The translations under genes and the position numbers were made by a program. Below are positions 106 through 26,089 of a stretch of 32,902 nucleotides of DNA, piece after piece. The first letter of the stretch is position 1. Every line of letters begins with the position of its first letter. Origin of the DNA: Phycisphaerae bacterium (lineage in GTDB: Bacteria > Planctomycetota > Phycisphaerae > SM23-33); contig JALHTV010000012.1 in assembly GCA_022866005.1 (NCBI GenBank), positions 1-32,902 on the forward strand, written 5' to 3'. The notes beneath the pieces were generated by a model that ran no database searches, had not been told where the DNA came from, and saw nothing but the letters and a program-made list of their open reading frames with translations.

Positions 106-1056
106 ATGGCGGCCGGTCGCAATCCCTGCATGCCAGGCAATCGAGCAGACATGCCCTGGGCTCTGGAGCGAACAAGCTGGCGGGGGGTGCGCGTGGATCA
201 TCCCCGCGACTGGGAAATCGCCCTGGCCGCCGGGCCTGACGAGCCACCGCGGTGCACCTTCACCGACCGCCACTACCACCGCCTCGACGTCCGCTGGCAG
301 GAGACCGATCACCCGCCCAACCTCGAGCTGCTCCTGGAGAAGCACCGCCACAGCCCCAAGGGCGAGCTTCGCGACGTCTCGCGGCTGGGGGGCCTGCCCG
401 CGGGGTGGTGCGGGGTGCTGCGCAAAGGCGAGGGCGGCTGCGTGACCTACGCGGCCAAGGTGTTCCGCGACCGGAGGGTGCTCGTGGAGGCCACGCTGTT
501 TTGGCCCGGGCAGCGCGACACCGCCCTGGAAGCAGCCGTTCTGGAGTCGGTCGCCGTGGACGCCGCGGGGCCCGTCCGCCTGTGGCAGGCGATGGGCATG
601 AGCCTGGAGTTGGGCGAGCAGTTCAGGCTGCGCAGCAGCGACAGCCGCGTCGGCCGCGTGCAGTGGCAGTTCGCCACCACCGGCCGAGACGCCGCGACGC
701 TCACGGTCGAGCGCCTGGCCATGCCCGACTGCTGGCTCAAAGGGCCCCTGGAAGATTGGCTCTCCGAGCAGGTGCCCCCCCGCCACGTCGCGGTCACCAA
801 GACCGCCACGACGTTCAATGAGCATTCGGCGCACCACCAGGTCAGCCGCGGCAAGGGCAGCCTGGGTGCGACCCTTCGCCACCTTCGGCCCATGAGGCTG
901 GACGTGGCTTGGCTGTGCGAGGCGGAGAATCGGCTGTACCATCTCGCCCTCGCGCGGCTGTCGCGAGATGCGGGGCTGGAGCTGCCGGCGAGTCTGGCGG
1001 TGCGGTGCTGCCAGCCGGTGCCGCAGGCGGCCAGCGGACCTGAGAGGCGACCATGA
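106..1056 (+). CDS. hypothetical protein, first gene of the ABC/PqqD operon. Start uncertain: GTG 34 and ATG 106, 130 or 151 are all in frame
   Basis: ORF 34..1056 in the track. Third codon positions are G/C-rich. Its TGA overlaps the ATG of the next ORF (ATGA at 1053-1056). TATAAA lies at 85-90. I recognise no motif. Confidence 0.5.
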   Translation: MAAGRNPCMPGNRADMPWALERTSWRGVRVDHPRDWEIALAAGPDEPPRCTFTDRHYHRLDVRWQETDHPPNLELLLEKHRHSPKGELRDVSRLGGLPAGWCGVLRKGEGGCVTYAAKVFRDRRVLVEATLFWPGQRDTALEAAVLESVAVDAAGPVRLWQAMGMSLELGEQFRLRSSDSRVGRVQWQFATTGRDAATLTVERLAMPDCWLKGPLEDWLSEQVPPRHVAVTKTATTFNEHSAHHQVSRGKGSLGATLRHLRPMRLDVAWLCEAENRLYHLALARLSRDAGLELPASLAVRCCQPVPQAASGPERRP

Positions 1057-1457
1057 GCCCACGGCGCGGCCAAAAACAGTTGCCAAATGGCCTCTCGGCG
1101 GCTAACTTCCTTCACGCCGTGCCACACGCGAACCGGGCCATGGAGACGCACCATCGGTCTGACGGAAGCACGTTGGCGTCCGTGCCGATTCCCAGGCCGA
1201 AGTACCTTGTGCCCCCTCTGAGCTGGATTCTCCCGTTCTCCCCCTATCGGCGGGTGGAACTGGAACCGGTGGGGTCCGGTGTGCTGAAGATGTGCGACGG
1301 CCGGCGAACGGTCGAGGCGATCATCGAGGCATTCGCCGCCGGCCACAAGCTGTCGTTCCGCGAGGCGCAGTTGGCGGTCACCCAGTTCCTCAGTCAACTC
1401 ATGCAACGCGGTCTGGTGGTGATCGTCGGCCAGGACGGAGACACACGCGGATCATGA
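1053..1457 (+). CDS. PqqD-family (RiPP recognition element-like) small protein
   Basis: The C-terminal ~75 aa read VELEPVGSGVLKMCDGRRTVEAIIEAFAAGHKLSFREAQLAVTQFLSQLMQRGLVVI. This follows the PqqD/RRE pattern of strands followed by a helical bundle (dG.rtv.eI ... a..dv..Fl..L...glv). ATGA overlaps occur at both ends (1053 and 1454). Confidence 0.6.
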   Translation: MSPRRGQKQLPNGLSAANFLHAVPHANRAMETHHRSDGSTLASVPIPRPKYLVPPLSWILPFSPYRRVELEPVGSGVLKMCDGRRTVEAIIEAFAAGHKLSFREAQLAVTQFLSQLMQRGLVVIVGQDGDTRGS

Positions 1458-3034
1458 AGACGATCCAGGTCAGAGATCAGGTGCACCTGCCGCTGCGGCG
1501 GTGCCTGGAGCTGGTGCTCAGCGGCGTCAGGTACCGCCTGTTCCGGGCGGCGATCACGGTGACGATCATCGCCCTGGCCGGGGCGTTCCTGATGGTCATG
1601 CTCACCGAAGGCTTCTCCGCGCGGCAAGTCGCCGCAGATATCGCTGAGCGCACCGCCCCCCGCGAGACCTTCCGGTCCTGGGTGTCCAGAATCTCCATCC
1701 CCATGACCGAGCTGCAACTGGCTGAGGAGCTGGCCGCGGCCAGCCCCGGTCAGCCTCGCTGGGGCGAGTTGGTCGCCTGGGGGGAATTGAGCGACGAGGA
1801 CCTCCGCCGCCTGGTCGAGCTGGCCAGGCGCCACCGCAAGTATCTGGCCTACTTCCGCAGCCTGGCTGAGGGACAACGCCGGATCCTGGTGGGGCCGGTC
1901 GGAGACGACGGGCTCTTTGCCGAGCTGACCCACCCCACCAGGTTCGCCACCTTCCAGGAGGGACTGAAGACCTCTTCCCGCCAGCTTCCCACGACCGTGG
2001 AGGAGTTCCAGAAGTTCCTGACCGACGGGCAGGACACCTCCCCGGTCCGTCAGAAGATCCTCTCGGCCAACGCCGCTGCCGTAGCCCAGGTCCAACGCAC
2101 CTTCCTAACTGGCGGGCAGACGCCGCAGTCGCTGCTGACCAAGGCCGACGAGGCCCTGGTCCGGGCCTTGGCGGCCTTGGGCTTCCGCATGCCCGCAGAC
2201 ATCCTGCCGCAGCTGCGGGAGCAAGCGGCCCTGAGCGTGGACAGCAAGACCCTGCTCGCGCTGTACGTCGGGCCGGCGGCCATTCAGACCGGCGTGGTTG
2301 ACGTGGGCACGGAGGGCGAGGGGGAAAACGAGGAGCCCGAGGGAGCCAAAGCCCCCGCACGGCCCCACAAGGGCGTGGTGCTGGTGAAGACCCTCCTGGC
2401 CGCTCGACTGGGTGTGAACATCACCAAGGTCAACGACCAGATGCTCTACGAGCACCTGTCCTCGGGGTCGGGCGCCCAGTGGTTCGTGGGGGTGACGGCC
2501 TGCGACACCAAGGGGGGTCTGGACGCCCGGCGCGTCCGACAGGTGGCCGAGTTCATGACCGACCAGAGCCGCCTGGAGACCATCAAGAACAACGTCGGGC
2601 AGGTCGCGGCCTCGGAGGGGTTCCTCGGGTTCAACAACCGGACACTCTCCCTGATCGTGGTCAGCTTCATGGTCTGCATTGTGGGCATCGCCAACGCGAT
2701 GCTGATGAGCGTCACCGAGCGGTTCCGCGAGATCGCCACGATGAAGTGCCTGGGGGCCACCGACGGGTTCATCATGATCAACTTCATCATGGAATCGATC
2801 ATGCTGGGCATCGCCGGCGGGGCGATCGGCATGGTCCTAGGGTTTATCCTGGGCCAGCTGCGGGCCTGGGGCAGCTACGGTCTGATGGCCTTGACGAGTC
2901 TGCCGGTCCTGGCCGTGCTGGCGGCAGCGGCGGTGGCGCTGGTGGTCAGCATCATCATCTCGGCCCTGGCGGCCGTGTATCCGGCCTGGGTGGCGGCCCG
3001 GCTGGCGCCGATGGAAGCCATGCGCATCGAATAG
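1454..3034 (+). CDS. MacB/FtsX-type ABC transporter permease: N-terminal TM, ~400-aa extracytoplasmic domain, C-terminal FtsX 3-TM bundle
   Basis: The ATG at 1454 overlaps the upstream stop. The N-terminal TM is AAITVTIIALAGAFLMVMLTEG. The C-terminal segment LSLIVVSFMVCIVGIANAMLMSVTERFREIATMKCLGATDGFIMINFIMESIMLGIAGGAIGMVLG...YPAWVAARLAPMEAMR is a typical FtsX domain. Confidence 0.8.
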   Translation: MKTIQVRDQVHLPLRRCLELVLSGVRYRLFRAAITVTIIALAGAFLMVMLTEGFSARQVAADIAERTAPRETFRSWVSRISIPMTELQLAEELAAASPGQPRWGELVAWGELSDEDLRRLVELARRHRKYLAYFRSLAEGQRRILVGPVGDDGLFAELTHPTRFATFQEGLKTSSRQLPTTVEEFQKFLTDGQDTSPVRQKILSANAAAVAQVQRTFLTGGQTPQSLLTKADEALVRALAALGFRMPADILPQLREQAALSVDSKTLLALYVGPAAIQTGVVDVGTEGEGENEEPEGAKAPARPHKGVVLVKTLLAARLGVNITKVNDQMLYEHLSSGSGAQWFVGVTACDTKGGLDARRVRQVAEFMTDQSRLETIKNNVGQVAASEGFLGFNNRTLSLIVVSFMVCIVGIANAMLMSVTERFREIATMKCLGATDGFIMINFIMESIMLGIAGGAIGMVLGFILGQLRAWGSYGLMALTSLPVLAVLAAAAVALVVSIIISALAAVYPAWVAARLAPMEAMRIE

Positions 3035-3048
3035 CGAGCGATTCGATC

Positions 3049-3843
3049 ATGAACGACACGTCGACCGCCCGAACGCCGCCTGCCTCGGCCCCGGCGCCCA
3101 CCGAGGAGCAGCCGGTCATCATCCGCACGCGCCAGCTCAAGAAGTCCTACCGCATGGGCCTGGTGACCACCGAGGCGCTGCGCGGGGTGGACGTGGAGAT
3201 CCACCGCGGCGAGTTCCTCTGCGTCATGGGGCCCAGCGGCTCGGGCAAGAGCACCTTCTTCAACATGGTCGGGGGACTGGACAGCCCCACCAGCGGGCGG
3301 GTGTTCATCGATGAGGTGGACGTGGCCCAGCTCAACGCCGTCGAGCTGGCCTTCCTCCGCTGCCGCAAAATCGGCTACATCTTCCAGACCTACAATCTGG
3401 TGCAATATATGACGTGCCTGGAGAACGTCACCGTGCCGATGGCGTTCGCCGGGGTCGACGCCGACGAGGCCCGCGAGCGCGGCATGGCGCTGCTGGACCT
3501 CGTGGGGCTCAAGGACCGCTGGTTCCACAAGCCCATCGAGATGTCCGGCGGCCAGCAGCAGCGCACGGCCATCGCCCGCGCCATGGCCAACCACCCGGCG
3601 ATCCTGCTGTGCGACGAACCCACCGGCAACCTGGACCTCAAGACCGGCGCCGAAATCCATCGGATCCTCCAACAGCTCAACGAGGAGCGCGGCGTGACGA
3701 TCATCTGCGCCACGCACGACCACCGGCTGATCGACATGGCCGATCGGATCATGTGGTTTCGCGACGGCCAGGTGGAACGCCTGGCCGACCGGCGCGACGT
3801 GACGGTCGAGACCGGCGCGATCGGAGGCGAAGAAAATGGCTAA
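3049..3843 (+). CDS. ABC transporter ATP-binding protein (MacB/LolD-like NBD)
   Basis: Walker A GPSGSGKST, signature MSGGQQQR, Walker B ILLCDEPT and H-loop ATHD are present. Starts at ATG 3049, 14 nt after the permease stop. Confidence 0.9.
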   Translation: MNDTSTARTPPASAPAPTEEQPVIIRTRQLKKSYRMGLVTTEALRGVDVEIHRGEFLCVMGPSGSGKSTFFNMVGGLDSPTSGRVFIDEVDVAQLNAVELAFLRCRKIGYIFQTYNLVQYMTCLENVTVPMAFAGVDADEARERGMALLDLVGLKDRWFHKPIEMSGGQQQRTAIARAMANHPAILLCDEPTGNLDLKTGAEIHRILQQLNEERGVTIICATHDHRLIDMADRIMWFRDGQVERLADRRDVTVETGAIGGEENG

Positions 3844-6800
3844 GCGAGGCATGATCTCCGTCATCGTGGCCCTCCTGGTGGGCGCCGCCGTGGGCGGATC
3901 GCTAAGGGCGGCAGTGTCCCTGGAGACCTTCGAGAGCGACTTGCGAGCCCTGGCGGCCCGGCCCCACCGCCTGGCCGGGTTCGAGGACGGAAGCCTGGCT
4001 GCGGGCCGGTACGTCCTGGAGCGGCTCAAGGAGATCGGCTTCCAGGACGAGGACATCTTCCCGCAGGCCTTCGCGGTGGTCCAACCGGTCACCACCCAGT
4101 GCGAGCTGGTGGCCGACGGTGTGAGTTACCCTATCCTGCCGATGCGACCGAACGTCGTCCAGGCCTCGATCACCCCCCAGGAGGGTCTCACCGGTGAGGT
4201 GGTCTACGCCGGCAGCGGCACGGCGGCCGAGTACGGCAACAACTACCCCCAGGGCAAGATCATCGCGATGGACCTGGACAGCGCCGCCAACTGGATGAAC
4301 GCCTTCGCCTTCGGGGCCAAGGCCGTGCTGTTCCTGGGACCGCCGGAAGGCTCGACGCCCGACATCCAGGCGTATCATCACGCCAACACACCGGCCAACC
4401 TGCCGCGGTTCTACGTACCGCACGAGCTGGCGGTGAAGCTGGACCTGACCAACCCCCACCGTCCGGGCAAGGTGACGATCCGGGCCGCCTGCCAGTGGAA
4501 GGAGCTCCGCGGCCGAAACGTCATTGCCGTGCTGCGGGGCACCAATCCGGTCTTCGAGAAGGGCGGCCTCCGCCAGATCGTCCTGCTGGCCGCCCCGCTG
4601 GACAGCTACTCGGAAGTCCCCGAGCTGTCTCCCGGCGCCCGCGACGCCGGCAACTGCGCCGCCCTGCTCCAGATCGCCGAATACCTGCGCACCCACCGGC
4701 CGCGACGCGACGTGGTCCTGTGCTTCTTCGACGGCCAGACACTCAACCACGCCGGCGCGCGGGCCTTCTACGGCGCCCTGTACCGGCGCATCAAGAACAC
4801 CAAGCTCGCCGACGCGACCCTGGATGACCGCCTCAAGGAACAAGACCAGGAGACCACCTACTTCCAGCAGATCCTGGACGTCCTTAACCAGCGGGACCTG
4901 ATGGGGTCGGCCGCTCGACAGATGAAGTACTTCGACGACGCTCTGCGCCTGCTGCGGGACGAGGCTCGCAATACCGGCGACGGCATCGAGGAGGTGCTCA
5001 GCCCCAAGCGCGTGGCGTTCGAGGAGATCCAGAAAGACCTGGCGCGACTTCGCAAGGCCTCCCAGGCCGCTGCGACCGCGGAGCAGAAGGCCCCGCTGGA
5101 CGCGGAGATCCAGGCCCGCCAGGGGACGGCGGACGCCTTGGACGCGGAGATCAAGGTCCTGGCGGAGCAGAGCCTGCAGTGGAACAGCGTCCAGCGCATG
5201 CTGCGCTACAAGACGCCCGATCCCCAGAACCAGGAGACGTTCGATCGGTTGCTGGAGATCTTCCGCAGCAAATACCGCCGGCGCCTGGAGGAGATTGCCC
5301 AGGCCTCCCAGGAAACCCGCCTGGGCAAGCGTCTGTACCAGGCCATCGGGCCGCAGAGCAGCACCATCGTCCTCCATGTCAGCATCGATCTGGGCGATGC
5401 CAGACGGCGATGGACGTTCATCCACGGGGACGATTCGGCCCCGGTGGACAACGACCGCACCGGCATGTACACCTATCACTTCAAGACCCTCAATGCGGTA
5501 GCCCAGGCGTTGGGCGACCGGGTGAAGGGGTTTGACGATCGCGCCGTCTCCCAGTTGTACGACAACCGCCTGTTCGCCCCCGGCCGGTTCGCCGACAGCG
5601 GCCCGATCGCGCGGCTGTTCTCGGTGTGGAACTTGTCGGTGATGACCGTGATGGATCGCCGGCCGCGCCAAGGCCTGCCCACCGACACGCTGGCGGCGCT
5701 GGACTCCAAAACCCTGTACGACCAGGCCGGCGAGGTGGCGGTGTTCCTCAAGCACCTGGCAGACGACGAGGGGATCAACCTGCTGCCCAAGACACGGGCC
5801 GAGGTGCGGTTCGGTGAGGCCTCCTGGACCGGCATCAAGAGCGTCGGCCCGAGGGTGAACCTCAGCGGCATCGGGGGGGCGCTGCGGACGAGGTCCATCG
5901 GCGACGCGTTCGTCGCCATCTTCCCCAACAACGGCTGGGGGGAAATGCCCATGGAGAAGGCCGTCCCGGGCTTTGTGGACTGGTTTCTCTGCAAGACCAA
6001 CGTCCACGGCATCTTTGAGACCGGGCCGTATTCCACGAACTACTACAAGAAGCCCTACTTCGTCGCGGTGATGTTCGACCGCGGCACCGGGGACGAAGAG
6101 GACCTGGCCACAGGGAGGGGACTCATCGAGGCCATCACCAACACCAGCAGGATCGGCGGCAGCACCGGCTCCGCCGCGGACTTCACCAAGGCCTCCCCGG
6201 TGATCTTCAAGACCCACTACAAGACCCTCGTCAACTACGGCGCCGACCGCGGGGCCGTCACCTCGACCGCCATGCGGGCCATGTCTACCGCCGCCTTCCC
6301 GAAAGATCGCAGCCTGCTGTGCGAGTGGGGCAACATCAGCAGCGTCTTCGCACCCGCCGACGCCAAGGGCATCAAGCTGTTCAACAAGATGACCCTGGTG
6401 GTCTTGAACAATGCCAAGTCCAAGGACCGCTATCAGGGGCAAGGACTCAGCCTGGACGACCCGTTCGACCACCCAGCGTCCCCGCCCATGACCGCCCACG
6501 ACTTGCGGACGCTGAATGAGTACCGCCTTCAGTTGCTGCGGGAGGTCCGCATCCACCAGGAATCGCTGGAAACCCTGACCGGCCGGGCCAAGGACCTGGA
6601 GACCGACGCCCAAGCCGGTCGCGGCAAGGCGCCGGCAGGCTGGTACTTCGGCACGCTGGAGACGTCGGCGGCCTTCTCGCGCCTGGTGTACATCCCGCTG
6701 ATCGACGTGATGAACGACCTGGTCACGGCCGTCGTGCTGCTGCTGTTGCTGGCCATGCCGTTTGCCTACGCCCTGGAGCGCCTCGTGATCGGCTCGCCGC

Positions 6801-8902
6801 ACATCTACCGACAGATCGGCTGGTTTGCCCTGTTCTTCCTGGCGACCTTCGCGCTGCTGTTCAGCGTGAACCCGGCGTTCAAGATCGCTTCCACGCCCAT
6901 CATCATCTTCCTGGCCTTCGCGATCATCCTGTTGAGCTCGCTGGTAATCTTCATCATGGTCCGCAAGCTCCAGACGGAGGTTCGCAAGATGCAGGGGCTG
7001 TCGGCCACGGTGCACAGCGCGGACGTCTCGCGGTTGAGCACGATGATGGCGGCGGTGAACATGGGGATTTCGACGATGCGCCGTCGGCCGCTGCGGACGC
7101 TCCTGACGGCCATCACCGTCGTGCTGCTGACCTTCACGATCCTGACGTTTGCCTCCTTCGGGAGCAGCTGGGGCATCTGGCCGAGCTATCAGGGCGCGAT
7201 GACCAGCTTGCGGCCTCACATCGTCGTGCGGCATCCGCTGTGGAGCCCGATTACCCACGGTGTCTTCGAGACGCTCGGCGGCTACCTGGGCAAGGACGCC
7301 GAAATCGTGCCGCGGATCTGGGTGTCCGGGACCGCCCAGCAGACCAAGGACGCCTACACCGCCGGTGCGAGCCTGGAGAAGATGCTGTCGGACGAGGGCG
7401 CCCGGCGGATCGTGCCCATGGCCGCGGCGATTGGGCTGGACCCGGCCGACCTGGCCGACGCGCAGGGCCGACCCCGCCAGGAGGAGCTGGCCGAGCTCTT
7501 TGCCCCCTCGGACCGGGTGGACCTCCTGGCCGCCGACGGCATCTTCCTCACCGAGGCCATCGCCAACGAACTGAAGCTCACCCCCGCTGACATCGGCCAG
7601 GCCAAGCTGCTGCTGGCCGGGATGACCTTCACCTACGCCGGCACGGTCAGCGATCGGCTGGCCACGGCCACGATGCTCGACGGCAGCAGCGTGCTGCCGG
7701 TGGACTACGAGGCCTCGGCGGGGGAATCGGAAGAGAACATCAACGAGCAGGCCACCACGACGCTCTCGCTGGTGGAGATGCCCGACGTCCAGAGCGCCCA
7801 GTTCGTCACGTTCAACGTGGACAAGGTGGTGATCATCCCCGCGGCCAAGGCCCGGCGCCTGGACGGCACAATTCGCTCCGTCTCGATCTACCCCGCCGAC
7901 GACAAGGTCGCCACGATCCGCGACATGGCCGATACCATCACGAGGATCGCGCAGGTGCCCACGCACGTGGGCGACCAGGGGGGCGTGCACCGGTTGGTCT
8001 TCACCTCGCTGGTCAGGGCGTCCGGCTGGCGGGACCTGCTGGTGCCGGTGGTGCTGGGCGGGCTGATCATCTTTGCCACGATGCTCGGCAGCGTCAGCGA
8101 CCGCGAGCGGGAGATCTACACCTTCAGCTCGCTGGGCCTGGCCCCGCCCCACGTGGCGAGCCTGTTCTTCGCTGAGGCGTCCATGTACGCGGTCCTGGGC
8201 GGGATGGGCGGGTACCTGCTGGGCCAGGTGGTGGCGCGGTTGCTGGCCTGGGTGAGCGGGACCTTCGGCTGGTCCGTGCCCACCATGAACTACAGCTCCA
8301 CCAACGCCCTGGTGACCATCGTGATCGTCATGGGCACGGTGCTGGTCTCGACGATCTACCCGGCGATCAAGGCCTCGCGGTCGGCCAACCCGGGCATCCA
8401 GAGAACCTGGCAGATCCCCAAGCCCAAGGGCAACCTCTATGACCTGATCTTCCCGTTTACCGTGTCTACCTACGACATCACGGGCGTGGTGAGCTTTCTG
8501 AAGGAGCACTTCGAGAACTACACGGACACGTCGCTGGGCGTGTTCGCGACGACCTCCTGCTCCATCTTCCGCCAGAAGGGCAACGACATGCTGGGCTTCC
8601 AGGCGACGGTGGCGCTGGCCCCGTTCGACCTGGGCGTCAACCAGCGCTTCGCCCTGCTCAGTCAGCCCAGCGACATCGAGGGCATCGACGAGGTCCGCAT
8701 CCTCATCTACCGTCTCAGCGGGGCCCCGGGCGACTGGCAGCGCGGCAATCGCGTCTTCATCCACGACCTGCGCAAGCAACTGCTCATCTGGCGGTCGCTG
8801 CCGGCGGAGGTAATGGACAAGTACCGCGCCAAGACGCTTGGGGGGTGGGACCAGCTCCCCGTGGAACAGGTCGACGGTGAGAGCATCGGAGGGACGGCGT
8901 GA
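3836..8902 (+). CDS. 1688-aa membrane fusion protein: signal/TM, M28/PA peptidase-like ectodomain with degenerate metal ligands, coiled-coil insert, extra TM helices, MacB/FtsX permease module, ~190-aa C-terminal domain
   Basis: ATG 3836 overlaps the upstream stop by 8 nt. M28-like motifs: NVIAVLRG, LLAAPLDS, PGARDAGNCAALLQIAEYL, VSIDLGD. The coiled coil is rich in K/E/Q/A. The MacB TM1 is RRRPLRTLLTAITVVLLTFTILTFASF. The FtsX block is LGGLIIFATMLGSVSDREREIYTFSSLGLAPPHVASLFFAEASMYAVLGGMGGYLLGQ...YPAIKASRSANP. Confidence 0.85.
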   Translation: MAKRGMISVIVALLVGAAVGGSLRAAVSLETFESDLRALAARPHRLAGFEDGSLAAGRYVLERLKEIGFQDEDIFPQAFAVVQPVTTQCELVADGVSYPILPMRPNVVQASITPQEGLTGEVVYAGSGTAAEYGNNYPQGKIIAMDLDSAANWMNAFAFGAKAVLFLGPPEGSTPDIQAYHHANTPANLPRFYVPHELAVKLDLTNPHRPGKVTIRAACQWKELRGRNVIAVLRGTNPVFEKGGLRQIVLLAAPLDSYSEVPELSPGARDAGNCAALLQIAEYLRTHRPRRDVVLCFFDGQTLNHAGARAFYGALYRRIKNTKLADATLDDRLKEQDQETTYFQQILDVLNQRDLMGSAARQMKYFDDALRLLRDEARNTGDGIEEVLSPKRVAFEEIQKDLARLRKASQAAATAEQKAPLDAEIQARQGTADALDAEIKVLAEQSLQWNSVQRMLRYKTPDPQNQETFDRLLEIFRSKYRRRLEEIAQASQETRLGKRLYQAIGPQSSTIVLHVSIDLGDARRRWTFIHGDDSAPVDNDRTGMYTYHFKTLNAVAQALGDRVKGFDDRAVSQLYDNRLFAPGRFADSGPIARLFSVWNLSVMTVMDRRPRQGLPTDTLAALDSKTLYDQAGEVAVFLKHLADDEGINLLPKTRAEVRFGEASWTGIKSVGPRVNLSGIGGALRTRSIGDAFVAIFPNNGWGEMPMEKAVPGFVDWFLCKTNVHGIFETGPYSTNYYKKPYFVAVMFDRGTGDEEDLATGRGLIEAITNTSRIGGSTGSAADFTKASPVIFKTHYKTLVNYGADRGAVTSTAMRAMSTAAFPKDRSLLCEWGNISSVFAPADAKGIKLFNKMTLVVLNNAKSKDRYQGQGLSLDDPFDHPASPPMTAHDLRTLNEYRLQLLREVRIHQESLETLTGRAKDLETDAQAGRGKAPAGWYFGTLETSAAFSRLVYIPLIDVMNDLVTAVVLLLLLAMPFAYALERLVIGSPHIYRQIGWFALFFLATFALLFSVNPAFKIASTPIIIFLAFAIILLSSLVIFIMVRKLQTEVRKMQGLSATVHSADVSRLSTMMAAVNMGISTMRRRPLRTLLTAITVVLLTFTILTFASFGSSWGIWPSYQGAMTSLRPHIVVRHPLWSPITHGVFETLGGYLGKDAEIVPRIWVSGTAQQTKDAYTAGASLEKMLSDEGARRIVPMAAAIGLDPADLADAQGRPRQEELAELFAPSDRVDLLAADGIFLTEAIANELKLTPADIGQAKLLLAGMTFTYAGTVSDRLATATMLDGSSVLPVDYEASAGESEENINEQATTTLSLVEMPDVQSAQFVTFNVDKVVIIPAAKARRLDGTIRSVSIYPADDKVATIRDMADTITRIAQVPTHVGDQGGVHRLVFTSLVRASGWRDLLVPVVLGGLIIFATMLGSVSDREREIYTFSSLGLAPPHVASLFFAEASMYAVLGGMGGYLLGQVVARLLAWVSGTFGWSVPTMNYSSTNALVTIVIVMGTVLVSTIYPAIKASRSANPGIQRTWQIPKPKGNLYDLIFPFTVSTYDITGVVSFLKEHFENYTDTSLGVFATTSCSIFRQKGNDMLGFQATVALAPFDLGVNQRFALLSQPSDIEGIDEVRILIYRLSGAPGDWQRGNRVFIHDLRKQLLIWRSLPAEVMDKYRAKTLGGWDQLPVEQVDGESIGGTA

Positions 8903-10905
8903 GCACCATCCGCTACGACAAGGAACTGGAAGAGTTCCGAAACCTGATGAAGGTGCCCTCGACGTTCGAGGAGGGCTTCAGCTTCGCGGCGCTCATTGGG
9001 GCGCTGTTCGTGGCGCTGATGATGGTCCCCGGGGCGATGTACATGACGCTGCTCGCCGGCCAGGGGGTCGGGCCCGCGGCCCAGTGGGTCACCGTCATCC
9101 TGTTCATCGAAGTCGCCCGCCGGGCGCACAAGCACCTCAAGAGGGCGGAACTGTTCATCCTGTTCTACATGGCGGGGGCAGCCATGGTGCAACCGTTCCA
9201 GGGGCTGATCTGGCACCAGTTCCTCGTCCAAAGCCAAGCCGCGATCGGCATGGGCGTGGCCCAGAACATCCCCCACTGGTACGCCCCTCGCGATCCGGAG
9301 GTGCTGGCCACACGGAACTTCTTCGACCCGGCTTGGTACCCCGCCGTCGGGATGGTCATCTTCAGCACCTTCATGGGCCGGATCAACGGCACCATCCTGA
9401 CGTACGGGCTGTTCCGGATCGCCAGCGACATCGAGAAGCTGCCCTTTCCCATGGCCCCGATCGGCGCCTCGGGCATCATGGCCCTGGCGGAGCAGCAGGA
9501 GGAAGAAGGCACGTGCGCCACCGAGAAGCCCGAGAACTGGCGGTGGAGGATCTTCAGCATCGGCGGCATCATGGGGTTGAGCTTTGGGGCGATCTACCTG
9601 GCGCTGCCGGCGCTGTCCTCGGCCATCCTCAATCAGCCGATCACCATCCTGCCCATTCCGTTCGTGGAACTGACAGGCAAGACCGCCGACATCCTCCCGG
9701 CCGTCGCCACCGGCATCAACCTGAACATGGGGCTGCTGATCACCGGAATGGCCATGCCCTTCTTTGCGATCCTGGGCTCGTTCATCGGGCTGGTGCTGAC
9801 GGTCATCATCAACCCGATGCTGTATAAGCATCAAATCCTCACCAGTTGGTCGCCCAGCGACGACAACACACCTAAGACGTTGTTCTTGAACCAGTTGGAC
9901 TTCTACTTCAGCTTCACTATCGGGCTGTCTCTGGCCATCGCGGCGGCGGGCATCTGGCAGGTGGTGCGCAGCATTCAGGCCAAGGCCAAGCTCCGCAAGC
10001 AGCAGCGGGAGCTTCGCGTCGAGATGGAGGCCGAGGCCATCACACCCAAGGGGCGCGGCGACCTCCCGGCGACGGCGGTCATCGGCACGTACCTCCTCAC
10101 CTCGGTGTCCTACATCCTGGTCAGCGGCTACCTCATCGACTGGCACCCGGGCGTCATGAAGGTGCTGCTGTTCTTCGCCTTCATCTACACCCCGGTGATC
10201 AGCTACGTCACCGCGCGCCTCGAGGGCCTGGCCGGGCAGGTGGTGGCCATCCCGATGGTCCGCGAGGCCGCGTTCATCCTGTCGGGGTACACCGGCGGGG
10301 TGGCCATCTGGTTCCTGCCGACCCCCATTCACGATTACGGCAAAGGCACCGTCCTCTACCGCCAGGCCGAGCTGACCGGCACGCGGTTCTGGTCGCTCTG
10401 GAAGGCCGAGCTGATCCTGGTGCCCATCGTGATGCTGGCCTCGATCTTCTTTGCCCAGTTCATCTGGTCGCTGGGACCCATCCCCGGGCCGGAGTTCCCC
10501 TACACCGAAGTCATGTGGGAGCAGGAGGCCGCCAACAAGTGCATCATGTACAGCGCCACGCTGGGGCGCTTCAGCACGTTCGAGCAGGCCTTCGATTGGA
10601 GATACCTGCTGATGGGCGGCGGGTTCGGCGTGGCGATGTTCACGATCATGATGCCGCTGCACCTGCCGATCCTGATGATCTACGGCATCGTCCGCGGCCT
10701 GGGGCAAACCCTGCCGCACCAGATCTTGCCTGAGATCGTCGGGGCGGTGCTGGGGCGCTACTACTTCCAGAGGAAGCTGGGCAAGAAATGGCGCCCGTAC
10801 ATCCTGGTGGTGGCGGCGGGATTCCACTGCGGCATGGGCTTGATCACCGTGCTCAGCGTGGGCCTGAACTTCCTGGCGAAGTCCGTCATCAGGATTCCGT
10901 TCTGA
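8899..10905 (+). CDS. 668-aa polytopic integral membrane protein, family unknown (weak OPT oligopeptide-transporter-like flavour, low confidence)
   Basis: The GTG start overlaps the upstream TGA (GTGA at 8899-8902). There are many hydrophobic ~20-aa segments throughout. The N-terminal pattern FSFAALIGALFVALMMVPGAMYMTLLAGQGVGPAAQWVTVILFIEVARR resembles the first helices of OPT-family proteins as I remember them. Confidence 0.7.
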   Translation: MSTIRYDKELEEFRNLMKVPSTFEEGFSFAALIGALFVALMMVPGAMYMTLLAGQGVGPAAQWVTVILFIEVARRAHKHLKRAELFILFYMAGAAMVQPFQGLIWHQFLVQSQAAIGMGVAQNIPHWYAPRDPEVLATRNFFDPAWYPAVGMVIFSTFMGRINGTILTYGLFRIASDIEKLPFPMAPIGASGIMALAEQQEEEGTCATEKPENWRWRIFSIGGIMGLSFGAIYLALPALSSAILNQPITILPIPFVELTGKTADILPAVATGINLNMGLLITGMAMPFFAILGSFIGLVLTVIINPMLYKHQILTSWSPSDDNTPKTLFLNQLDFYFSFTIGLSLAIAAAGIWQVVRSIQAKAKLRKQQRELRVEMEAEAITPKGRGDLPATAVIGTYLLTSVSYILVSGYLIDWHPGVMKVLLFFAFIYTPVISYVTARLEGLAGQVVAIPMVREAAFILSGYTGGVAIWFLPTPIHDYGKGTVLYRQAELTGTRFWSLWKAELILVPIVMLASIFFAQFIWSLGPIPGPEFPYTEVMWEQEAANKCIMYSATLGRFSTFEQAFDWRYLLMGGGFGVAMFTIMMPLHLPILMIYGIVRGLGQTLPHQILPEIVGAVLGRYYFQRKLGKKWRPYILVVAAGFHCGMGLITVLSVGLNFLAKSVIRIPF

Positions 10906-10925
10906 TCCAAGAGAGAGCCGCGCGC

Positions 10926-11654
10926 ATGGCCACTCAAGATACGATCATCCGCTGCCGGGGGCTGACCAAGACCTACCGCATGGGCGGCCAGGAGGTCTAC
11001 GCCCTGCGCCACATGGACCTGGACGTCTTCCGCGGGGAGTACCTCTCGGTGATGGGTCCCAGCGGCAGCGGCAAGAGCACGCTGTTCAACATGATCGGGG
11101 CGCTGGACAAGCCCACCGGCGGCACGGTGACCATCGCCGGGGTGGACCTGACCGCCCAGACCAGCCTGCAACTGGCCTACTTCCGCAACCAGCACATCGG
11201 GTACATCTTCCAGGCCTTCAACCTCATCCCCTCGCAGACGGCCCTGCGGAACGTCATGCTGCCGCTGCTGTTCTCGGGCATGGACAACACCGCCGCCGAA
11301 AGGCGCGCCACGGCAGTCCTGGAGGAAGTCGGCCTGGGCCAACGCCTGCACCACCGGCCGGACGAGCTCTCCGGCGGCCAGCAGCAGCGCGTCGCCATCG
11401 CCCGCGCGCTGGCGATGGAGCCGACGATCATGCTGGCGGACGAACCCACGGGCAACCTCGACTTGCACACCGGGGAGGAGATCATCAACATCCTCCGCGG
11501 CCTGTGCGACCACCACGGCGTGACCGTCATCACGGCCACCCACGACCACAAGATGCTGGACAAGTCCGACCGCATCCTCTGGATCCGCGACGGGGCCAAG
11601 GAACGCCTCGAGAAGCGCAGCAACCTGGACATCCGCGTGGGAAAGGTCGAATAG
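10926..11654 (+). CDS. ABC transporter ATP-binding protein (second MacB/LolD-like NBD, paralog of 3049..3843)
   Basis: Walker A GPSGSGKST, signature LSGGQQQR, Walker B IMLADEPT and H-loop ATHD are present. ATG 10926 lies 20 nt after the upstream stop. Confidence 0.9.
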   Translation: MATQDTIIRCRGLTKTYRMGGQEVYALRHMDLDVFRGEYLSVMGPSGSGKSTLFNMIGALDKPTGGTVTIAGVDLTAQTSLQLAYFRNQHIGYIFQAFNLIPSQTALRNVMLPLLFSGMDNTAAERRATAVLEEVGLGQRLHHRPDELSGGQQQRVAIARALAMEPTIMLADEPTGNLDLHTGEEIINILRGLCDHHGVTVITATHDHKMLDKSDRILWIRDGAKERLEKRSNLDIRVGKVE

Positions 11655-11755: not shown

Positions 11756-12618
11756 CTACTCTTCCTCGATGTCTTTGCGGCTCATCAGGAAGGTCACGCG
11801 CTCCAGGATGTCTTTGTGGAGGGTCTTGCGGAGGATTCTCCGGGCGGCGGCCATGTTGGTCCGGCGGGTCAGGTGCACCAGGATGATCTTGGCGTTGCTC
11901 ATGCCCTCCAGCATCTCCGGCAGGTCGGAGGCATGCACGTGCTTGCCCACGCGGGCGCGGTGCAGATGCTCCTCGTCGAAGAACGTGCACTCGATCAGCA
12001 GCGCCTGGGCGTTGGCCACGTGAGGCAGGTGGGAGTAGCTGGCCTTGCCGGTATCCCCCAGGTAGGCCACCAGCGGCACCTCGATGCGGTTGGTGATCTC
12101 CACACCGGACTTCTTCAGCTCCACGATCTGCGGGCCCGACAGCTCCAGGTACTCGCTCTTGAGCTTCGCCCGGACGTCGATGATGGAGTAGCCCAGCGAG
12201 CCGGTGATGTGCCGCGTGGCAAAGGCCCGGACGATCAGACCGCGGCGGACCTCGTAGTTGTCCCCGTCGGCCACGCCCACCAGCTTGTACGGCGGCACGT
12301 GCCCTTCCACCCGCCCCCAGGCGCTCATCAGGGCCTCAATCGGCCCGACCAGACCCGCCGGCACCACGGCCACCCCGTGGCGATGCCCTGGAAGTCCCGC
12401 TGGGCAAAGTAGTACGGCAGTCCGGCGACGTGGTCCATGTGGCCGTGGGTCAGCAGCAGGTGGTTGACGACCAACGCCTCGCGCGGGCAGCGGCCGATGT
12501 CAAAAACGCAGTCCAGCTCCGGCGCGACAATGACCGCCTCCTCCCCGGCCACGCTGTAGCCAGCCAGGGTGAACTCGCCCACGCGAACCTCGCTAAGCTC
12601 GTAGGGACGAATCTTCAT
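11756..12618 (-). pseudogene. MBL-fold metallo-hydrolase (RNase Z / RNase BN-like) interrupted by a -1 nt frameshift
   Basis: ORF 12328..12618 carries the HxHxDH motif (LTHGHMDHVAG). ORF 11756..12373 carries the rest of the fold (...ATRH..., GDTG, ...VHLTRR). The two frames meet at a C4 run at 12373-12376. Confidence 0.7.
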
Positions 12619-17208: not shown

Positions 17209-18402
17209 CTACGCACCCTCGCCGCCCACACCGCGCTGCCGTCGGCGGAAGACCCAGAGGTGGGAGAGGGTAAAGTTGAACAGCAGCCCCGCCAGGATGC
17301 CGACGATGGCCGCGGCCAGCAAGTGGGCCTTGAAGAACGCCGCCTTGCTGGGCAGGAAACAACTGATAAACCAGTTGATCCCGGCTCCCACGCTACACGC
17401 GCTGACGAACCTCCAATACTGCGCCCAGACCCTTCCACCGCGCATGTGGCTGTACGTCACGCGCCGATTGAAAAAGAAATTCCACGTCATGGCCACCAAG
17501 ATGGCCAGGGCGCGGGCAGCGTATATCATCAGTTTGTGGGTAGCTTCCGTCGCCGACATCGCTCGGGCCAGAGGATGGGCCCCCAGGTCTAGCAGCAGTG
17601 CGTAGGCGGACAGGTCCACGACTGCCCCCGTCCCGCCGACCAGGCAGAACTGAAACAGCCTGGAGAACCAGCCATACTTGTAGTCCGCCAGGCGCTTGAT
17701 GTGCTTGAGGTAGTTGACCTGCTCCTTGAGGCTGAGCTTGCTCTGGCCGAACTTGCGGTTGGCGAAGTGGATGGGCACCTCGCGGATGTCCTTGCAGCCG
17801 CACTTGACGATCAGCTCCAGGGCGATCTTGTAGCCGATGGGGTTAAGGGCCGCCGCGCGATGGAAGACCGCCCGGGGCAACGCGAAAAACCCTGCCATCG
17901 GGTCGCGGGCCTTGGTGAACGGCCAGGCCAGTAGCGTGGCCACCTTGCTATTGACCCAGCGGAACAGTCCCCAGCCCTCATCCGTGCTGGCCCCCGGGAC
18001 ATAGCGGCTGCCGATGGCAAAGTCCGCGCCCCCGGCCAGGCAGTCCAGCAGCGCGGGGATGGCCTCGGGCGGGTGACTAAGGTCGGCGTCCATGCAGACC
18101 AGGGTGTCGCCGATAGCCCGGCCGAAGCCATCGATGACGGCCGAGCTGAGGCCGCGCACACCCACGCGAGTAATCAGGCGAACCGGCAGCCCCTCGGCGG
18201 CCAGCTCGGCGATCACCTGGTCGCTGCCGTCACGGCTGTCGTCGTCGACGATGATCACCTCCCAGGATCGCCCCAGCGCGGGCATCACCTGGCGGATGCG
18301 GTCGACCAGTGGGCGGAGGTTCTCGGCCTCCCGGTACGTCGGCACGATGATCGACACCGCGTCGCCGCGCCCGGGGGACCTGGAGGGAAAGGAGGATGAC
18401 AT
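17209..18402 (-). CDS. GT2 polyprenol-phosphate glycosyltransferase (DPM1/GtrB/CsbB-like) fused to a C-terminal GtrA-like 4-TM domain
   Basis: GT2 motifs: IIVPTYREAENL, VIIVDDDSRDGS, CMDADLSHPP. The C-terminal segments FCLVGGTGAVVDLSAYALL ... NFFFNRRVTY ... FNFTLSHLWVF are GtrA-like. Confidence 0.85.
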   Translation of the reverse strand: MSSSFPSRSPGRGDAVSIIVPTYREAENLRPLVDRIRQVMPALGRSWEVIIVDDDSRDGSDQVIAELAAEGLPVRLITRVGVRGLSSAVIDGFGRAIGDTLVCMDADLSHPPEAIPALLDCLAGGADFAIGSRYVPGASTDEGWGLFRWVNSKVATLLAWPFTKARDPMAGFFALPRAVFHRAAALNPIGYKIALELIVKCGCKDIREVPIHFANRKFGQSKLSLKEQVNYLKHIKRLADYKYGWFSRLFQFCLVGGTGAVVDLSAYALLLDLGAHPLARAMSATEATHKLMIYAARALAILVAMTWNFFFNRRVTYSHMRGGRVWAQYWRFVSACSVGAGINWFISCFLPSKAAFFKAHLLAAAIVGILAGLLFNFTLSHLWVFRRRQRGVGGEGA

Positions 18403-20966: not shown

Positions 20967-21081
20967 CTCACCGCTGATGCTACCGGTCACCAAGGCCTCC
21001 TCAGCACGACGCTGCAAGTACCTATTCTATCTAGACGTCGGCCAAACGCTGGAGGTTTTCGCAGTTTCCTCCGCACCCCTT

Positions 21082-21971: not shown

Positions 21972-24380
21972 TCAGGACCTGGGGACCTTGCGGGGGTTGA
22001 CGTAGGTCACCGCCCCCTGCGCGGCGGGCTTGCCCCTGCCGCCCCAGGCGCGCCTGCGGACCAGGTGCAGGACCAGCACCGCTAAGGTCACCGCGACCGC
22101 AACCAGCGACACCCACCGGCCGATGAGGAAGCCGCTCGGTCGGTACTCCAGACAGATCCGATGCCGCCCGGCCCCCAGCGGAATGGCCCGCAGGCAGTAG
22201 TTGGCCGGCATGACCGTGTACTCCCGCTGACTGCTGCCGGGCAGGGCGCGGGCGCGCCAGGACTTGCTGTAGGCGTCGGTCACCAGCAGGATGGCGGGGG
22301 CCGAAAGCTCCGCCTCGATGGTCATCGCGTCGGTGGACGACTGGACCACCCTGGCCCTGCCAGGGTCGGGCACACCGGCAGGGGCGATGGCGGGCGGCCG
22401 CTCCAGGATCACGGTCGCTCGGGGATCGAAGTCGGTGGCGCTCATGGCGTCGAACACCGCCTCGCGGCTGGGGCACACCTGGAAGCTGCCGACCAGGTGC
22501 AGCCGGCCCATCGGCTCGACTGCCACCAGGCCGTCGGGGAGCAGGACGCACCGGCAGCGCAGCATGGCAAACAGGCCGTGCGGGCGCAGGGCGCCGACGT
22601 GCTGGAAGAAGTCGGCATCTTCGATAGGCCAACCCTGCGTGAAGTAGATGAACTGCATGTAGCGGCGGAGGACAAATGAGTCGTAGCCCCACAGGTCGGC
22701 CCCATCGACGGCCATCGCCAGGTTCGGCAGGAAGGGGTTGAGCGTCCGCGTGTCATCCCCGCGGCCTTGGACATACGGCTGGAGCGCCTGCGGAAGCCCC
22801 GCCCCGAGCTGGAACGTGGGCCGCTGGGTAAAGCGGGCAAAGACGATTAGCTCCACCATCGCCAGCCCCGCCACCAGGAACCCTGCACGCGGCCAGAGGC
22901 GCGCCAGGAACAGCACCAGCGCCAGCGCCACGGCCGTCCCCGCGGCGATCCACAGAGACTCCGCGGCGAAGGTCCCTGCCTGGCGCATGAAGTCGGGGTC
23001 GCTGAAGATGGCCTTCGGCTGCCAAGATTCACCCGTCCGGCGCATGGCCGCAAGGATGTTGTGCCAGGCGGTTCCCTCCCCCTCCGGCGACAACCCCCCC
23101 AAGTACATCACGACCCCCGCCACCGCCAGCGCGAGGGCGAGGATTAGCACAATCGCCACTGAGCCGAGCACGAAGCGCCCGCGGGAAACCAGGGCCTGCA
23201 AGCCCAGCCCACAAAGCATCGCCAGAAACAGCGTCGCGGGGTACAGGAACCGGGAACTGTTGCGGAAGTGATCGAACCCCGGCACGTAATCGTGCGTCAG
23301 GCGAAAGAGCGCCGGAATGTACGCGCCCATGGCCAGGACCAGCGCGACGGCCACGATCAGCACGGAGAATCGTCGCTTCTCCGCCGGGGCCGCCAGGACG
23401 GCGTAGACCGCCAGGAACAGCCCCGCGATGCCGATGAACGGCTGCACCTCCCACAGGAACCACCGCCCCCAGTAGGTCATCTCCTCGGTCCCGCCGAACA
23501 TCATCGGGGCCAGGAAGCACACGAAGTTCTCCGGCGGGAAGGAGTATTGGGCGGCCTTGTCCAGCGCCATCCCACCGCTGCGGAGTGTCTCGGCCGACTC
23601 GCTCAACGTCGTCAGCAGCTGCACCGCCGCCAGCGCCGCGGCGCCGAGGAACATCGCCGCGATGCCCCCCACCGACACCCACCGCCGCCTCGCCCGGAAG
23701 ACCAGGTTCAGCGCCCCATACAGGCCCGCCGTCACCGCCGTGTAGAAGAAGTACTGCGGATGGCCGGCCAGCACCTGCATCGCGACCGCCAGCGCCCCCA
23801 GCAGCGCCCAGCCCAGCCCCGGCCGATCGATCAGACCGTCGACGGCCAGCAGCACCAGCGGCGCCCAGGCGAGGGTGCACAGGTGCGGCAGGTGCCCGGG
23901 CATCACCTGCATGAACACCGCCCCCGAGAGCATCAGCACCGCCCCCGCGACCGTCGCTGCCGCGGTCCCCAGCCCGCGATAGAACGCCCAGGCGTACATG
24001 AACACGCCCGTCAGCCACAGGTGGAGAACGAAGCTGAGATTCAGCGCCGTCACCAGCGGGCAAAAGACGAACAGCCAATTGGGTGGATACAGCAGCGCCG
24101 ACTGCGCCCCGCCGAAAAACGGGCACCCGCAGAAGATGTGCGGGTTCCACAGCGCCAGGTTGCCCGCCGCCAGCTCGGCAAAGCCAAACTGCCGCCAGTA
24201 GGCGAACTGCTTGTACGTATCGGACCACTGGCGCCCCAGGACCCGCGGGCGCGAGTCCAGCAGCACGTCGGCGAAGATCACCAGGACCAGCACCCCCAGC
24301 ACCGCCGCCGCCGTCCCGTGCGGGTGCAGGCGACCCCAGCGGGCGGGGGACTTGGCGGGGGAGGCTTGGGCCGTCTTCAT
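21972..24380 (-). CDS. YfhO-family polytopic membrane protein (GT-C-like glycosyltransferase)
   Basis: The N-terminal segment [47 protein letters not shown] matches the YfhO signature as I remember it (lWnPyifsG.Pf.an.qs..fyP). More than 12 hydrophobic helices are followed by a C-terminal soluble domain and a terminal TM. Confidence 0.65.
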
Positions 24381-25881: not shown

Positions 25882-26089
25882 AACATTCTGACTTCGGATC
25901 GCACGTCGGTCAGGCTAGCAGGTGAGGCCACGCCGGCTCGGCACAGTGAGGGCAACAGAGTACCCCACTGCATTGGCTGTGTGCTTGCCTGTTGTGCACG
26001 TCGTTATGGGAGTGAGTGGACGGCCCGTCCGCGGCGAGGTCTGGAGAACACGAGTCCTAGGTCCCTCCTTAGACGTTGGAGATGCACAT

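Follow-up and report, generated by a model that had tools for sequence, protein, structure and literature searches.

A cassette of seven genes, O1–O7, encoding predicted ATP-binding cassette (ABC) transport proteins and their partners occupies positions 106–11654 of a 32,902-nucleotide stretch of DNA from a Phycisphaerae bacterium (assembly GCA_022866005.1, contig JALHTV010000012.1, positions 1 to 32,902; hereafter the window). Its predicted products place it among type VII (MacB/FtsX-type) ABC systems, because they include FtsX transmembrane (TM) bundles, ectodomains inserted between TM1 and TM2, and ATPases of the LolD clade. The initial annotation of this DNA had proposed a single, unfamiliar envelope machine, and that proposal is partly supported: the genes are co-conserved and do not correspond to a known system, the set of partners is unprecedented, and the function is predicted. 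With a probability of about 0.35, we propose that O1–O7 form one mechanotransmission machine of the cell envelope, with an OPT-like conduit and a peptide-like substrate that moves outward.

Organization of the Cassette

All seven open reading frames (ORFs) lie on the + strand. O1 (106–1056) encodes a protein with a predicted tandem PsbP/Mog1/DUF1795-like fold, O2 (1053–1457) a member of the PqqD family and O3 (1454–3034) a 526-amino-acid (aa) MacB-type permease of the FtsX fold. O4 (3049–3843) is an ABC ATPase with the ABC_tran domain and is followed by O5 (3836–8902), a protein of 1688 aa in which a giant ectodomain is fused to an FtsX permease. The last two genes are O6 (8899–10905), a 668-aa polytopic protein of the OPT family, and O7 (10926–11654), the second ABC_tran ATPase. 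O1 more likely starts at 151, because its homologs are ∼301 aa long.

The genes are tightly packed. ATGA start/stop overlaps join O1 to O2 at 1053 and O2 to O3 at 1454, O4 and O5 share 8 nt (ATGGCTAA) at 3836–3843, and O5 and O6 overlap by GTGA at 8899. The remaining junctions are gaps of 14 nt between O3 and O4 (3035–3048) and 20 nt between O6 and O7 (10906–10925). Every junction in the sequence matches the same-strand arrangement given in the initial annotation. Across related loci, the median spacing at the O1–O2, O2–O3 and O5–O6 junctions is –4 nt, corresponding to an ATGA-type overlap. Chance does not explain this layout, as 80 related loci repeat its gene order and strand. O7 is followed on the – strand by a convergent gene for a protein of the MBL fold (11756–12373), so the cassette unit ends at 11654. 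The hairpin after O7 is no better as a terminator than shuffled sequence (z = –0.47), a scan for promoters and terminators gave chance-level results, and there are no Rfam families or tRNAs anywhere in the window.

The G+C content of the window is 63–73%, and long ORFs are present in all frames. Among the ORFs of the cassette region, family or homolog support is restricted to O1–O7. O5 is shadowed by a 1625-aa antisense ORF (3902–8779, – strand), and comparable long shadows lie over O6 and further genes; all are without family support and are high-GC artefacts. The public gene call of O5 is 1535 aa long (P0001, 91% coverage) and starts ∼153 codons late, omitting the region 3836–4294. The start at 3836, within the 8-nt overlap, is right because homologs align from residue 1.

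Distribution and Conservation

We scanned one genome per GTDB species (∼185,000 species) and found O5 relatives in 294 species genomes. A word-indexed search gave 138 close O5 homologs with no annotation beyond “hypothetical,” “M28 family peptidase” or “FtsX-like permease,” and residues 963–1688 of O5 retrieved 1152 clusters at 50% identity (E ≤ 1e-30). Locus counts refer to the best 80 loci, all of them from metagenome-assembled genomes (MAGs) or uncultured-isolate assemblies, with taxa as given by the assembly labels. Labels of the Planctomycetota–Verrucomicrobiota–Chlamydiota (PVC) group are carried by 72 of the 80: Phycisphaerae-class bacteria (21), other Planctomycetota (18), Kiritimatiellia (12), Verrucomicrobiota/Opitutales (11) and Victivallales/Lentisphaerae (10). 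Five further loci are unclassified, and Chitinivibrionales, Sumerlaeia and a “Delta proteobacterium” contribute one each.

When the seven window proteins were compared with these loci by tblastn, gene order and strand were the same wherever the contig reaches. O6 and O7 follow O5 in all 63 loci with enough flank, and O1–O4 precede O5 in 41 of 56 by tblastn and in more when family HMMs are used. Independent gene calls on a 1.3-Mb Phycisphaerae contig (L081) and on a Kiritimatiellia contig (L083) agree with this arrangement. The expectation that the seven genes travel together therefore holds for Phycisphaerae, other Planctomycetota, Kiritimatiellia, Lentisphaerae/Victivallales and Verrucomicrobiota, although O1–O2 are missing locally in a few lineages. 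In two Verrucomicrobia loci (L055 and L068) and one of Lentisphaerae (L077), the order is DUF6785–O3–O4–O5–O6–O7 and O1–O2 do not adjoin; a Kiritimatiellae locus (L024) has O5–O6–O7 but lacks O1–O4 in the 6 kb upstream. Because of these few lineages without adjoining O1–O2, the invariant core is O3–O7, with O1–O2 present in most loci.

Besides a DUF6785/6784 protein, described below, no flanking gene is conserved, and the flanks are unrelated between lineages. In the syntenic relative on L081, the upstream 6 kb encode DUF2203, fmt, rsmB, smpB, a LysM protein and recG.

The Giant Protein O5

Homologs of O5 span residues 1–1688. Its topology, which we infer from hydropathy, begins with a signal or anchor helix (residues 9–27, 3860..3916, + strand, as for all O5 segments below) followed by a first ectodomain of ∼930 residues (28–960), which is delimited by hydropathy and alignments. 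The first part of this ectodomain (residues 28–320, 3917..4795) aligns to 2ek8 and nicastrin as a PA domain and the first half of an M28-like domain, with the catalytic residues lost. It is followed by a probable helical, coiled-coil-like insertion of ∼170 residues (∼331–500, 4826..5335), suggested by weak profile matches, all to coiled-coil proteins. The rest (residues 501–960, 5336..6715) would comprise a probable second M28-like half, an unassigned region and a helical stalk, as judged from a motif comparison by eye and from ortholog columns. Within the membrane part, hydropathy predicts three highly conserved TM helices (residues 962–1040, 6719..6955), a cytoplasmic linker (1041–1087) and the FtsX module (1088–1511, 7097..8368), which consists of TM1 (1088–1106), a second ectodomain of ∼295 aa (1107–1400) and TM2–4 (1402–1511). 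A strongly conserved α+β domain, predicted to be cytosolic and modelled with AlphaFold2 (AF2), forms the C terminus (residues 1515–1688, 8378..8899). No family match was found for the helical insertion (∼331–500), for residues 501–960, among which ∼640–900 are the unassigned part, or for the second ectodomain.

Within the first ectodomain, residues 228–313 match PF04389 (Peptidase_M28) with 32.5 bits versus 21.3, covering profile positions 1–78 only, and residues 28–320 align to the PA-M28 aminopeptidases 2ek8 (E 3.7e-9) and YwaD (E 1.9e-6), and also to nicastrin (E 1.3e-3). At the M28 zinc and catalytic positions, O5 of the window has P254, D270 and Q301-T302, and there is no His at 587; the histidine of the HxD motif is thus replaced by Pro, and the Glu-Glu pair by Gln-Thr. 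In 73 orthologs, position 254 is P, N or H, position 270 (the bridging Asp) is G, D, N or A, and positions 301–302 are Q or E followed by A or T. The M28 two-zinc ligand set (H, D, E, D/E, H) and the catalytic Glu are absent from the O5 family in this sample. The domain is therefore predicted to be a nicastrin-like pseudo-peptidase across the whole family, and the loss of zinc and catalytic residues in all lineages sampled bears out the pseudo-peptidase proposed in the initial annotation.

The three-TM block that precedes the FtsX module has many invariant residues and matches positions 74–205 of the PADLOC profile PDLC01991. We considered whether O5 is a duplicated FtsX permease, with its eight TM helices arranged as 4+4; hhalign gave a probability of 0.7% for residues 940–1050 against 1385–1520, and this candidate was rejected. 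The FtsX module scores 37.3 bits to PF02687 (cut-off 25.5, E 3.2e-9, residues 1405–1515), and residues 1407–1520 match MacB, LolF and LolC. No sequence similarity to MacB-type ectodomains was detected in the ectodomains of the FtsX modules of O3 and O5.

The C-terminal domain is among the best-conserved parts of the protein, and residues 1515–1688 have no Pfam or PADLOC match. Its AF2 model (pLDDT 86, pTM 0.82) has a β-α-β4(antiparallel)-α-α topology. Homology of this domain to O1 was rejected by a negative hhalign comparison, and its identification as CARF, the name given by PADLOC, was rejected because the model is not Rossmann-like and the domain lies outside the profile match.

Four O5 relatives of 756–802 aa (P0330, P0349, P0272 and P0364) start in the stalk before the three-TM block and have no M28-like ectodomain. 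These could represent a real short form or result from truncated calls or split genes, and are perhaps the basis of the 810-position PADLOC profile.

The Permease O3 and the ATPases O4 and O7

O3 matches PF02687 (FtsX) with 54.4 bits (cut-off 25.5, E 1.6e-14). By hydropathy, TM1 (residues 32–50) is followed by an ectodomain (51–399) and by TM2–4 (400–503); the ectodomain, of ∼345 aa, is variable between lineages. The closest solved structures are 5xu1, a pneumococcal MacB-like protein (E 1.6e-24), MacB, LolF and YtrF, with the matches confined to the C-terminal TM bundle.

O4 carries the motifs GPSGSGKS, MSGGQ and CDEP, and O7 carries GPSGSGKS, LSGGQ and ADEP. The Walker A motif, the signature, the Walker B glutamate and the H-loop are kept in all 58 O4 and all 64 O7 orthologs, and both proteins score highest with the NCBIfam LolD model (220 and 234 bits). 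On these motifs and models, O4 and O7 are assigned as ABC ATPases of the LolD/MacB/FtsE clade. Each has an ortholog group of its own, with identities within a group of at least 54–63% and a between-group median of 50%. Taken over the cassette, Pfam and NCBIfam agree with the domain calls made earlier from the sequence: a PqqD protein, two FtsX permeases, two LolD/MacB-like ATPases and a giant M28-like::FtsX fusion.

O6 and the DUF6785/6784 Protein

O6 matches PF03169 (OPT) with 44.5 bits against a gathering cut-off of 25.8 (E 1e-11, residues 147–453). It has 3921 database clusters at 90% identity, labelled “OPT/YSL family transporter” or “peptide transporter” in the sources, and the OPT family is precomputed on most of the homologs. 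Identity is 51–81% across 24 aligned loci from all five PVC groups, and a sequence search of the PDB gave no match. We describe O6 as an OPT-family member with a predicted transport role. The earlier description of a 668-aa multi-TM protein was right as to the polytopic nature of O6, and is corrected in that the protein belongs to the OPT family above the Pfam cut-off. Two of its motifs contain invariant residues. “GRGD” (residues 385–388, window 10051–10062) has an invariant R-G-D at the cytoplasmic entry to a TM helix, after a charged loop, and “SDIEKLPFP” (residues 176–184, window 9424–9450) has invariant D177 and E179.

A membrane protein of ∼620–720 aa with DUF6785 and DUF6784 accompanies the cassette in 33 of the 80 loci (for example, L011:4223–6241, L061:5616–7667 and L083:761–2812). 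It occurs in four different positions: upstream of O1, between O2 and O3 (Kiritimatiellia), immediately in front of O3 in loci without O1–O2, and after O7; it lies upstream of the cassette in 14 of 46 loci. It is a facultative and frequent eighth member. An hhalign comparison of O6 with DUF6785 was weak (probability 42%), with a common E-x-L-P-F/Y-P motif, and BLASTP gave no match. We found no paper and no NCBIfam name for DUF6785/6784.

Directly upstream of O1 in four Victivallales loci (L064:4043–6067 and three others) is a MurJ-like gene, of the lipid II flippase family. It takes the place that DUF6785 has in other lineages, and the four loci are close relatives that count as one observation.

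O1 and O2

No match to O1 was found in Pfam, NCBIfam or PADLOC. The AF2 model (pLDDT 86) contains two tandem α/β sandwiches, for which the top Foldseek match is the tandem type VI secretion immunity protein TplEi (E 4e-5), followed by PsbP (E 6e-4), with a Foldseek probability of 1.0; Tsi3, the Eag chaperones EagT6 and SciW, Mog1, DcrB and LpqN were also matched. The model suggests a tandem PsbP/Mog1/DUF1795-like fold, which would put O1 in a class that binds or chaperones proteins or peptides and not among enzymes; no enzyme signature is seen in O1. The label “unknown ∼300-aa protein” in the initial annotation stands insofar as O1 is without a sequence family, but not as regards its fold.

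O2 matches PF05402 (PqqD) with 38.1 bits (gathering cut-off 23.4, E 2e-9) and is below all NCBIfam PqqD-subfamily cut-offs. The family alignment shows a conserved N-terminal extension of ∼60 residues, and there are weak profile alignments to the lasso B1/PqqD chaperone 9x90 and to PqqD (3g2b). O2 is accordingly classed as a putative peptide-binding protein of the PqqD family, of the RiPP recognition element (RRE) type, where RiPP stands for ribosomally synthesized and post-translationally modified peptide. O1 and O2 are both taken to be cytoplasmic, because hydropathy shows no hydrophobic or TM segment in either.

Comparison with Known Systems

The cassette scored below every curated NCBIfam equivalog cut-off applied (LolC/E/D, MacB, FtsX/FtsE, DevC/A and DarD). 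The view that it is not a known Lol, MacB, FtsEX, DevCA or DarD system is thereby upheld.

The cassette resembles MacB and MacAB–TolC, the holotype of type VII ABC systems, which share the FtsX-fold four-TM bundle, the big ectodomain between TM1 and TM2 and an ATPase of the LolD/MacB clade, so that mechanotransmission is expected (PMC5985334). In contrast to MacAB–TolC, the ATPases of the cassette are separate genes, its ectodomains are without detectable similarity, its score against the MacB equivalog is 43 bits versus 966, and it adds OPT-like, PqqD and PsbP-like partners. There is also no TolC-like gene and, as noted in the initial annotation, no HlyD adaptor: HlyD and OEP families are absent from the scanned ORFs of the window, from the L081 and L083 gene calls and from the conserved flanks.

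Like LolCDE and LolDF, the cassette has two FtsX-type permease genes and LolD-like ATPases. However, these ATPases fall short of the LolD cut-off of 307.75 bits, lolCE scores are 42 bits (O3) and 15 bits (O5) versus 362, the permeases are very unequal (526 versus 1688 aa), and there are two distinct ATPase genes rather than one.

FtsEX acts via EnvC, in which a coiled coil is combined with a degenerate metallopeptidase domain. The combination of an FtsX module, a coiled-coil element and a dead periplasmic metallopeptidase domain is common to FtsEX–EnvC (or PcsB, RipC) and the cassette, but in the cassette the dead peptidase is of the M28/PA type rather than M23/LytM and is fused to the permease. 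FtsX scores are 31–40 bits versus 225–255, FtsE scores are 204–206 bits versus 264.85, the distribution of the cassette is patchy, and it does not lie in a division cluster.

The first ectodomain of O5 has parallels outside ABC transporters, in nicastrin of γ-secretase and in M28-like receptors such as the transferrin receptor and GCPII, which also combine a PA+M28-like ectodomain, lost catalytic residues and a multi-pass membrane tether. O5 differs from this group in being bacterial, in its fusion to an ABC permease and in the ∼170-residue helical insertion, and no intramembrane protease was identified.

Residues 963–1563 of O5 match the PADLOC profile PDLC01991, “CARF_m8--CARF_LolE_TM” (E 1e-42), and O5 also matches PDLC01990, the 1791-position “…Beta-galactosidase_LolE_TM” profile (E 3e-17). 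Segment scans confine the likeness to the membrane part, that is, the unusual three-TM block and the FtsX module. O5 has no counterpart to PDLC01991 past position ∼600 (presumably CARF; the last ∼200 positions), and unlike the proteins behind both profiles it has an unrelated α+β C-terminal domain and an M28-like ectodomain. O5 is therefore a relative of CARF-census proteins with a different cytosolic domain. These profiles reportedly derive from the computational CARF census of Makarova et al. 2020. They are the only prior trace of the cassette, one that is purely computational and covers the membrane part of O5. Literature searches with combinations of PqqD, FtsX, OPT, M28, nicastrin, CARF and DUF terms found no paper on this gene set.

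The PqqD/RRE chaperones of RiPP pathways (PqqD, lasso B1) resemble O2, which is above the Pfam cut-off and aligns to lasso B1 and PqqD structures, but O2 has no partner maturase or precursor gene and stands in an ABC/OPT context. The cassette is not a RiPP cluster, because an RRE is present but no precursor or maturase.

Proposed Mechanism

In MacB-type modules, motion powered by ATP is passed on to periplasmic domains, and the modules carry no substrate across their own membrane (PMC5985334). In the machine that we propose, O3 and O5 would be unlike FtsX-fold permeases, each with its own ATPase (O4 and O7), and ATP hydrolysis in the cytoplasm would move their large periplasmic domains. The ∼930-residue ectodomain of O5 would be the main working part and would bind the end of a peptide or protein in the manner of nicastrin; it would bind and not cut, because the metal and catalytic residues are lost. 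A separate conduit is proposed because MacB-type modules are without a transmembrane substrate path, and O6, often together with the DUF6785/6784 protein, would supply that path for a peptide-like substrate. At the cytoplasmic face, O2 and O1 would hold the substrate or an adaptor segment, and the cytosolic C-terminal domain of O5 may be a regulatory or docking module. Substrate would pass from cytoplasm to envelope and then be handled or released by the ATP-driven ectodomains. A machine for a peptide-like substrate is suggested because two modules, an OPT fold, a dead fold of the N-terminus-binding kind, an RRE and an Eag/PsbP-like protein are strictly linked. The outward direction is tentatively favoured because all PqqD proteins known so far have a ribosomal precursor peptide as their ligand. 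The assembly into one complex, the peptide substrate, the direction and the role of each accessory part are all predicted at this level.

Several points weigh against this proposal. Characterised OPT proteins are importers, and a pair of ATPase genes would suit a pair of transporters, (O3)2(O4)2 and (O5)2(O7)2, as well as a single hetero-complex. Assembly and substrate are predicted from gene content, order, folds and families. The Foldseek matches of O1 have TM-scores of just 0.42–0.58 and are without sequence-level support, and those of the O5 C-terminal domain, to 3lyd, to Bet v1/PYL/START proteins and to SciW, are weak (E ≥ 3e-3, TM < 0.4). In at least four loci (L024, L055, L068 and L077), O1–O2 are not beside the cassette and so are not obligatory in cis. 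Finally, no RiPP precursor or maturase was found in the window, upstream in L081 or in conserved flanks.

Alternative Explanations

The same parts could serve peptide uptake or sensing. O6 would then be a proton-driven oligopeptide importer, the ectodomain would capture periplasmic N termini, ATP-driven motion would feed them to O6, and O2 and O1 would receive the peptide. The assignment of O6 to a family whose characterised members import peptides fits this scheme, as do the PA-M28 fold, which is built for binding a free N terminus, the peptide-binding fold of O2 and the carriers themselves, mostly heterotrophs from sediment, gut and digester samples according to MAG titles. Nevertheless, no known OPT protein requires an ABC motor, no link between import and type VII ABC systems has been made, neither a regulator nor a downstream enzyme is present in the cassette, and the only known ligands of PqqD proteins are ribosomal precursor peptides. 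We regard uptake as unlikely.

Envelope remodelling without peptide transport is also a doubtful explanation. Here, in a manner like FtsEX–EnvC, the O5 ectodomain would activate or position a periplasmic hydrolase, or would extract a lipid-anchored molecule as in Lol or HrtBA systems, with O6 and DUF6785 as scaffolds or as carriers of lipid-linked substrates. The degenerate metallopeptidase of O5, with its helical insertion and its fusion to an FtsX module, is the parallel to FtsEX–EnvC that recommends this explanation, and the MurJ-like gene in the upstream place of DUF6785 in four Victivallales loci would suit it, but those four loci are close relatives. The scores against NCBIfam FtsX, FtsE and LolC/D/E are far under the cut-offs, occurrence in 294 of ∼185,000 species is unlike that of a housekeeping system, there is no linked hydrolase gene, and O2, as an RRE protein, is left unexplained.

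It is improbable that the cassette provides export or immunity for a RiPP or bacteriocin pathway with its precursor and maturase elsewhere in the genome, in a manner comparable to darobactin DarBCD or to target protection of the Bce type. Such a role would account for the PqqD/RRE protein O2, the ATPases score well (though under the cut-offs) against DarD and “bacteriocin export” nucleotide-binding domain models, and the best solved relative of O3, 5xu1, is a MacB-like transporter with a reported role in antimicrobial-peptide resistance. Against it, the window and the conserved flanks contain no radical SAM, cyclodehydratase, lasso B2/C or precursor gene, and the upstream genes of the syntenic relative include fmt, rsmB, smpB and recG. 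The upstream inspection called for in the initial annotation thus returned no precursor or maturase, either in the 6 kb upstream of the syntenic relative or in conserved flanks. Clustering of small ORFs near the cassette likewise gave no conserved precursor; most of what it returned was Arg-rich, high-GC noise or lay antisense to DUF6785. Moreover, RiPP loci usually vary, whereas different phyla have an identical cassette.

An anti-phage or abortive-infection membrane effector, for which the matches of O5 residues 963–1563 to PDLC01991 and PDLC01990 could be cited, is highly improbable, since the PADLOC match covers only the membrane part, the C-terminal domain is not Rossmann- or CARF-like and leaves the last ∼200 profile positions unmatched, and the cassette is surrounded by housekeeping genes, without CRISPR or defence genes nearby.

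Other Genes in the Window

The rest of the window is unrelated to the cassette and includes HMGL-like, GT2/GtrA, PMT_2-TPR, YfhO-like, IspD, GATase and class II ribonucleotide reductase genes, among others. Family scans identified a GT2 protein with a GtrA/DPMS TM domain (17209–18402), a PMT_2 protein with many TPR repeats (18426–21017) and a YfhO-like protein (21972–24380), all on the – strand. These look like a polyprenyl-phosphate-sugar synthase and two periplasmic glycosyltransferases of the GT-C type, as far as their families indicate. The three genes are non-contiguous, with ORFs that include an IspD match between the second and the third. A class II (B12-dependent) ribonucleotide reductase with a TSCPD domain lies at 25922–29122 on the + strand.

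Implications

Type VII ABC systems are understood from few examples, namely MacAB-TolC, LolCDE, FtsEX, BceAB and HrtBA. The cassette described here is large, abundant, strictly ordered, wholly unstudied and widespread in uncultivated PVC bacteria. We know of no report of a type VII motor with an OPT-fold protein, with a PqqD/RRE binder outside a RiPP pathway or with a bacterial nicastrin-like dead peptidase. A bolder extension of the one-machine proposal, which we hold to be rather unlikely, is that the cassette represents a new pathway of PVC bacteria for the translocation and handling, secretion or sorting of peptides or proteins. In such a pathway, an OPT-like conduit, often with DUF6785, would work with a hetero-oligomeric type VII motor bearing a nicastrin-like receptor, and an RRE and an Eag-like chaperone would select the cargo. 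If O1–O7 do form one machine, it would show how a motor without a transmembrane substrate path couples to a separate conduit, would give a first function to DUF6785/6784 and bacterial OPT-like proteins, and would expose a process specific to the poorly understood cell envelope of PVC bacteria.

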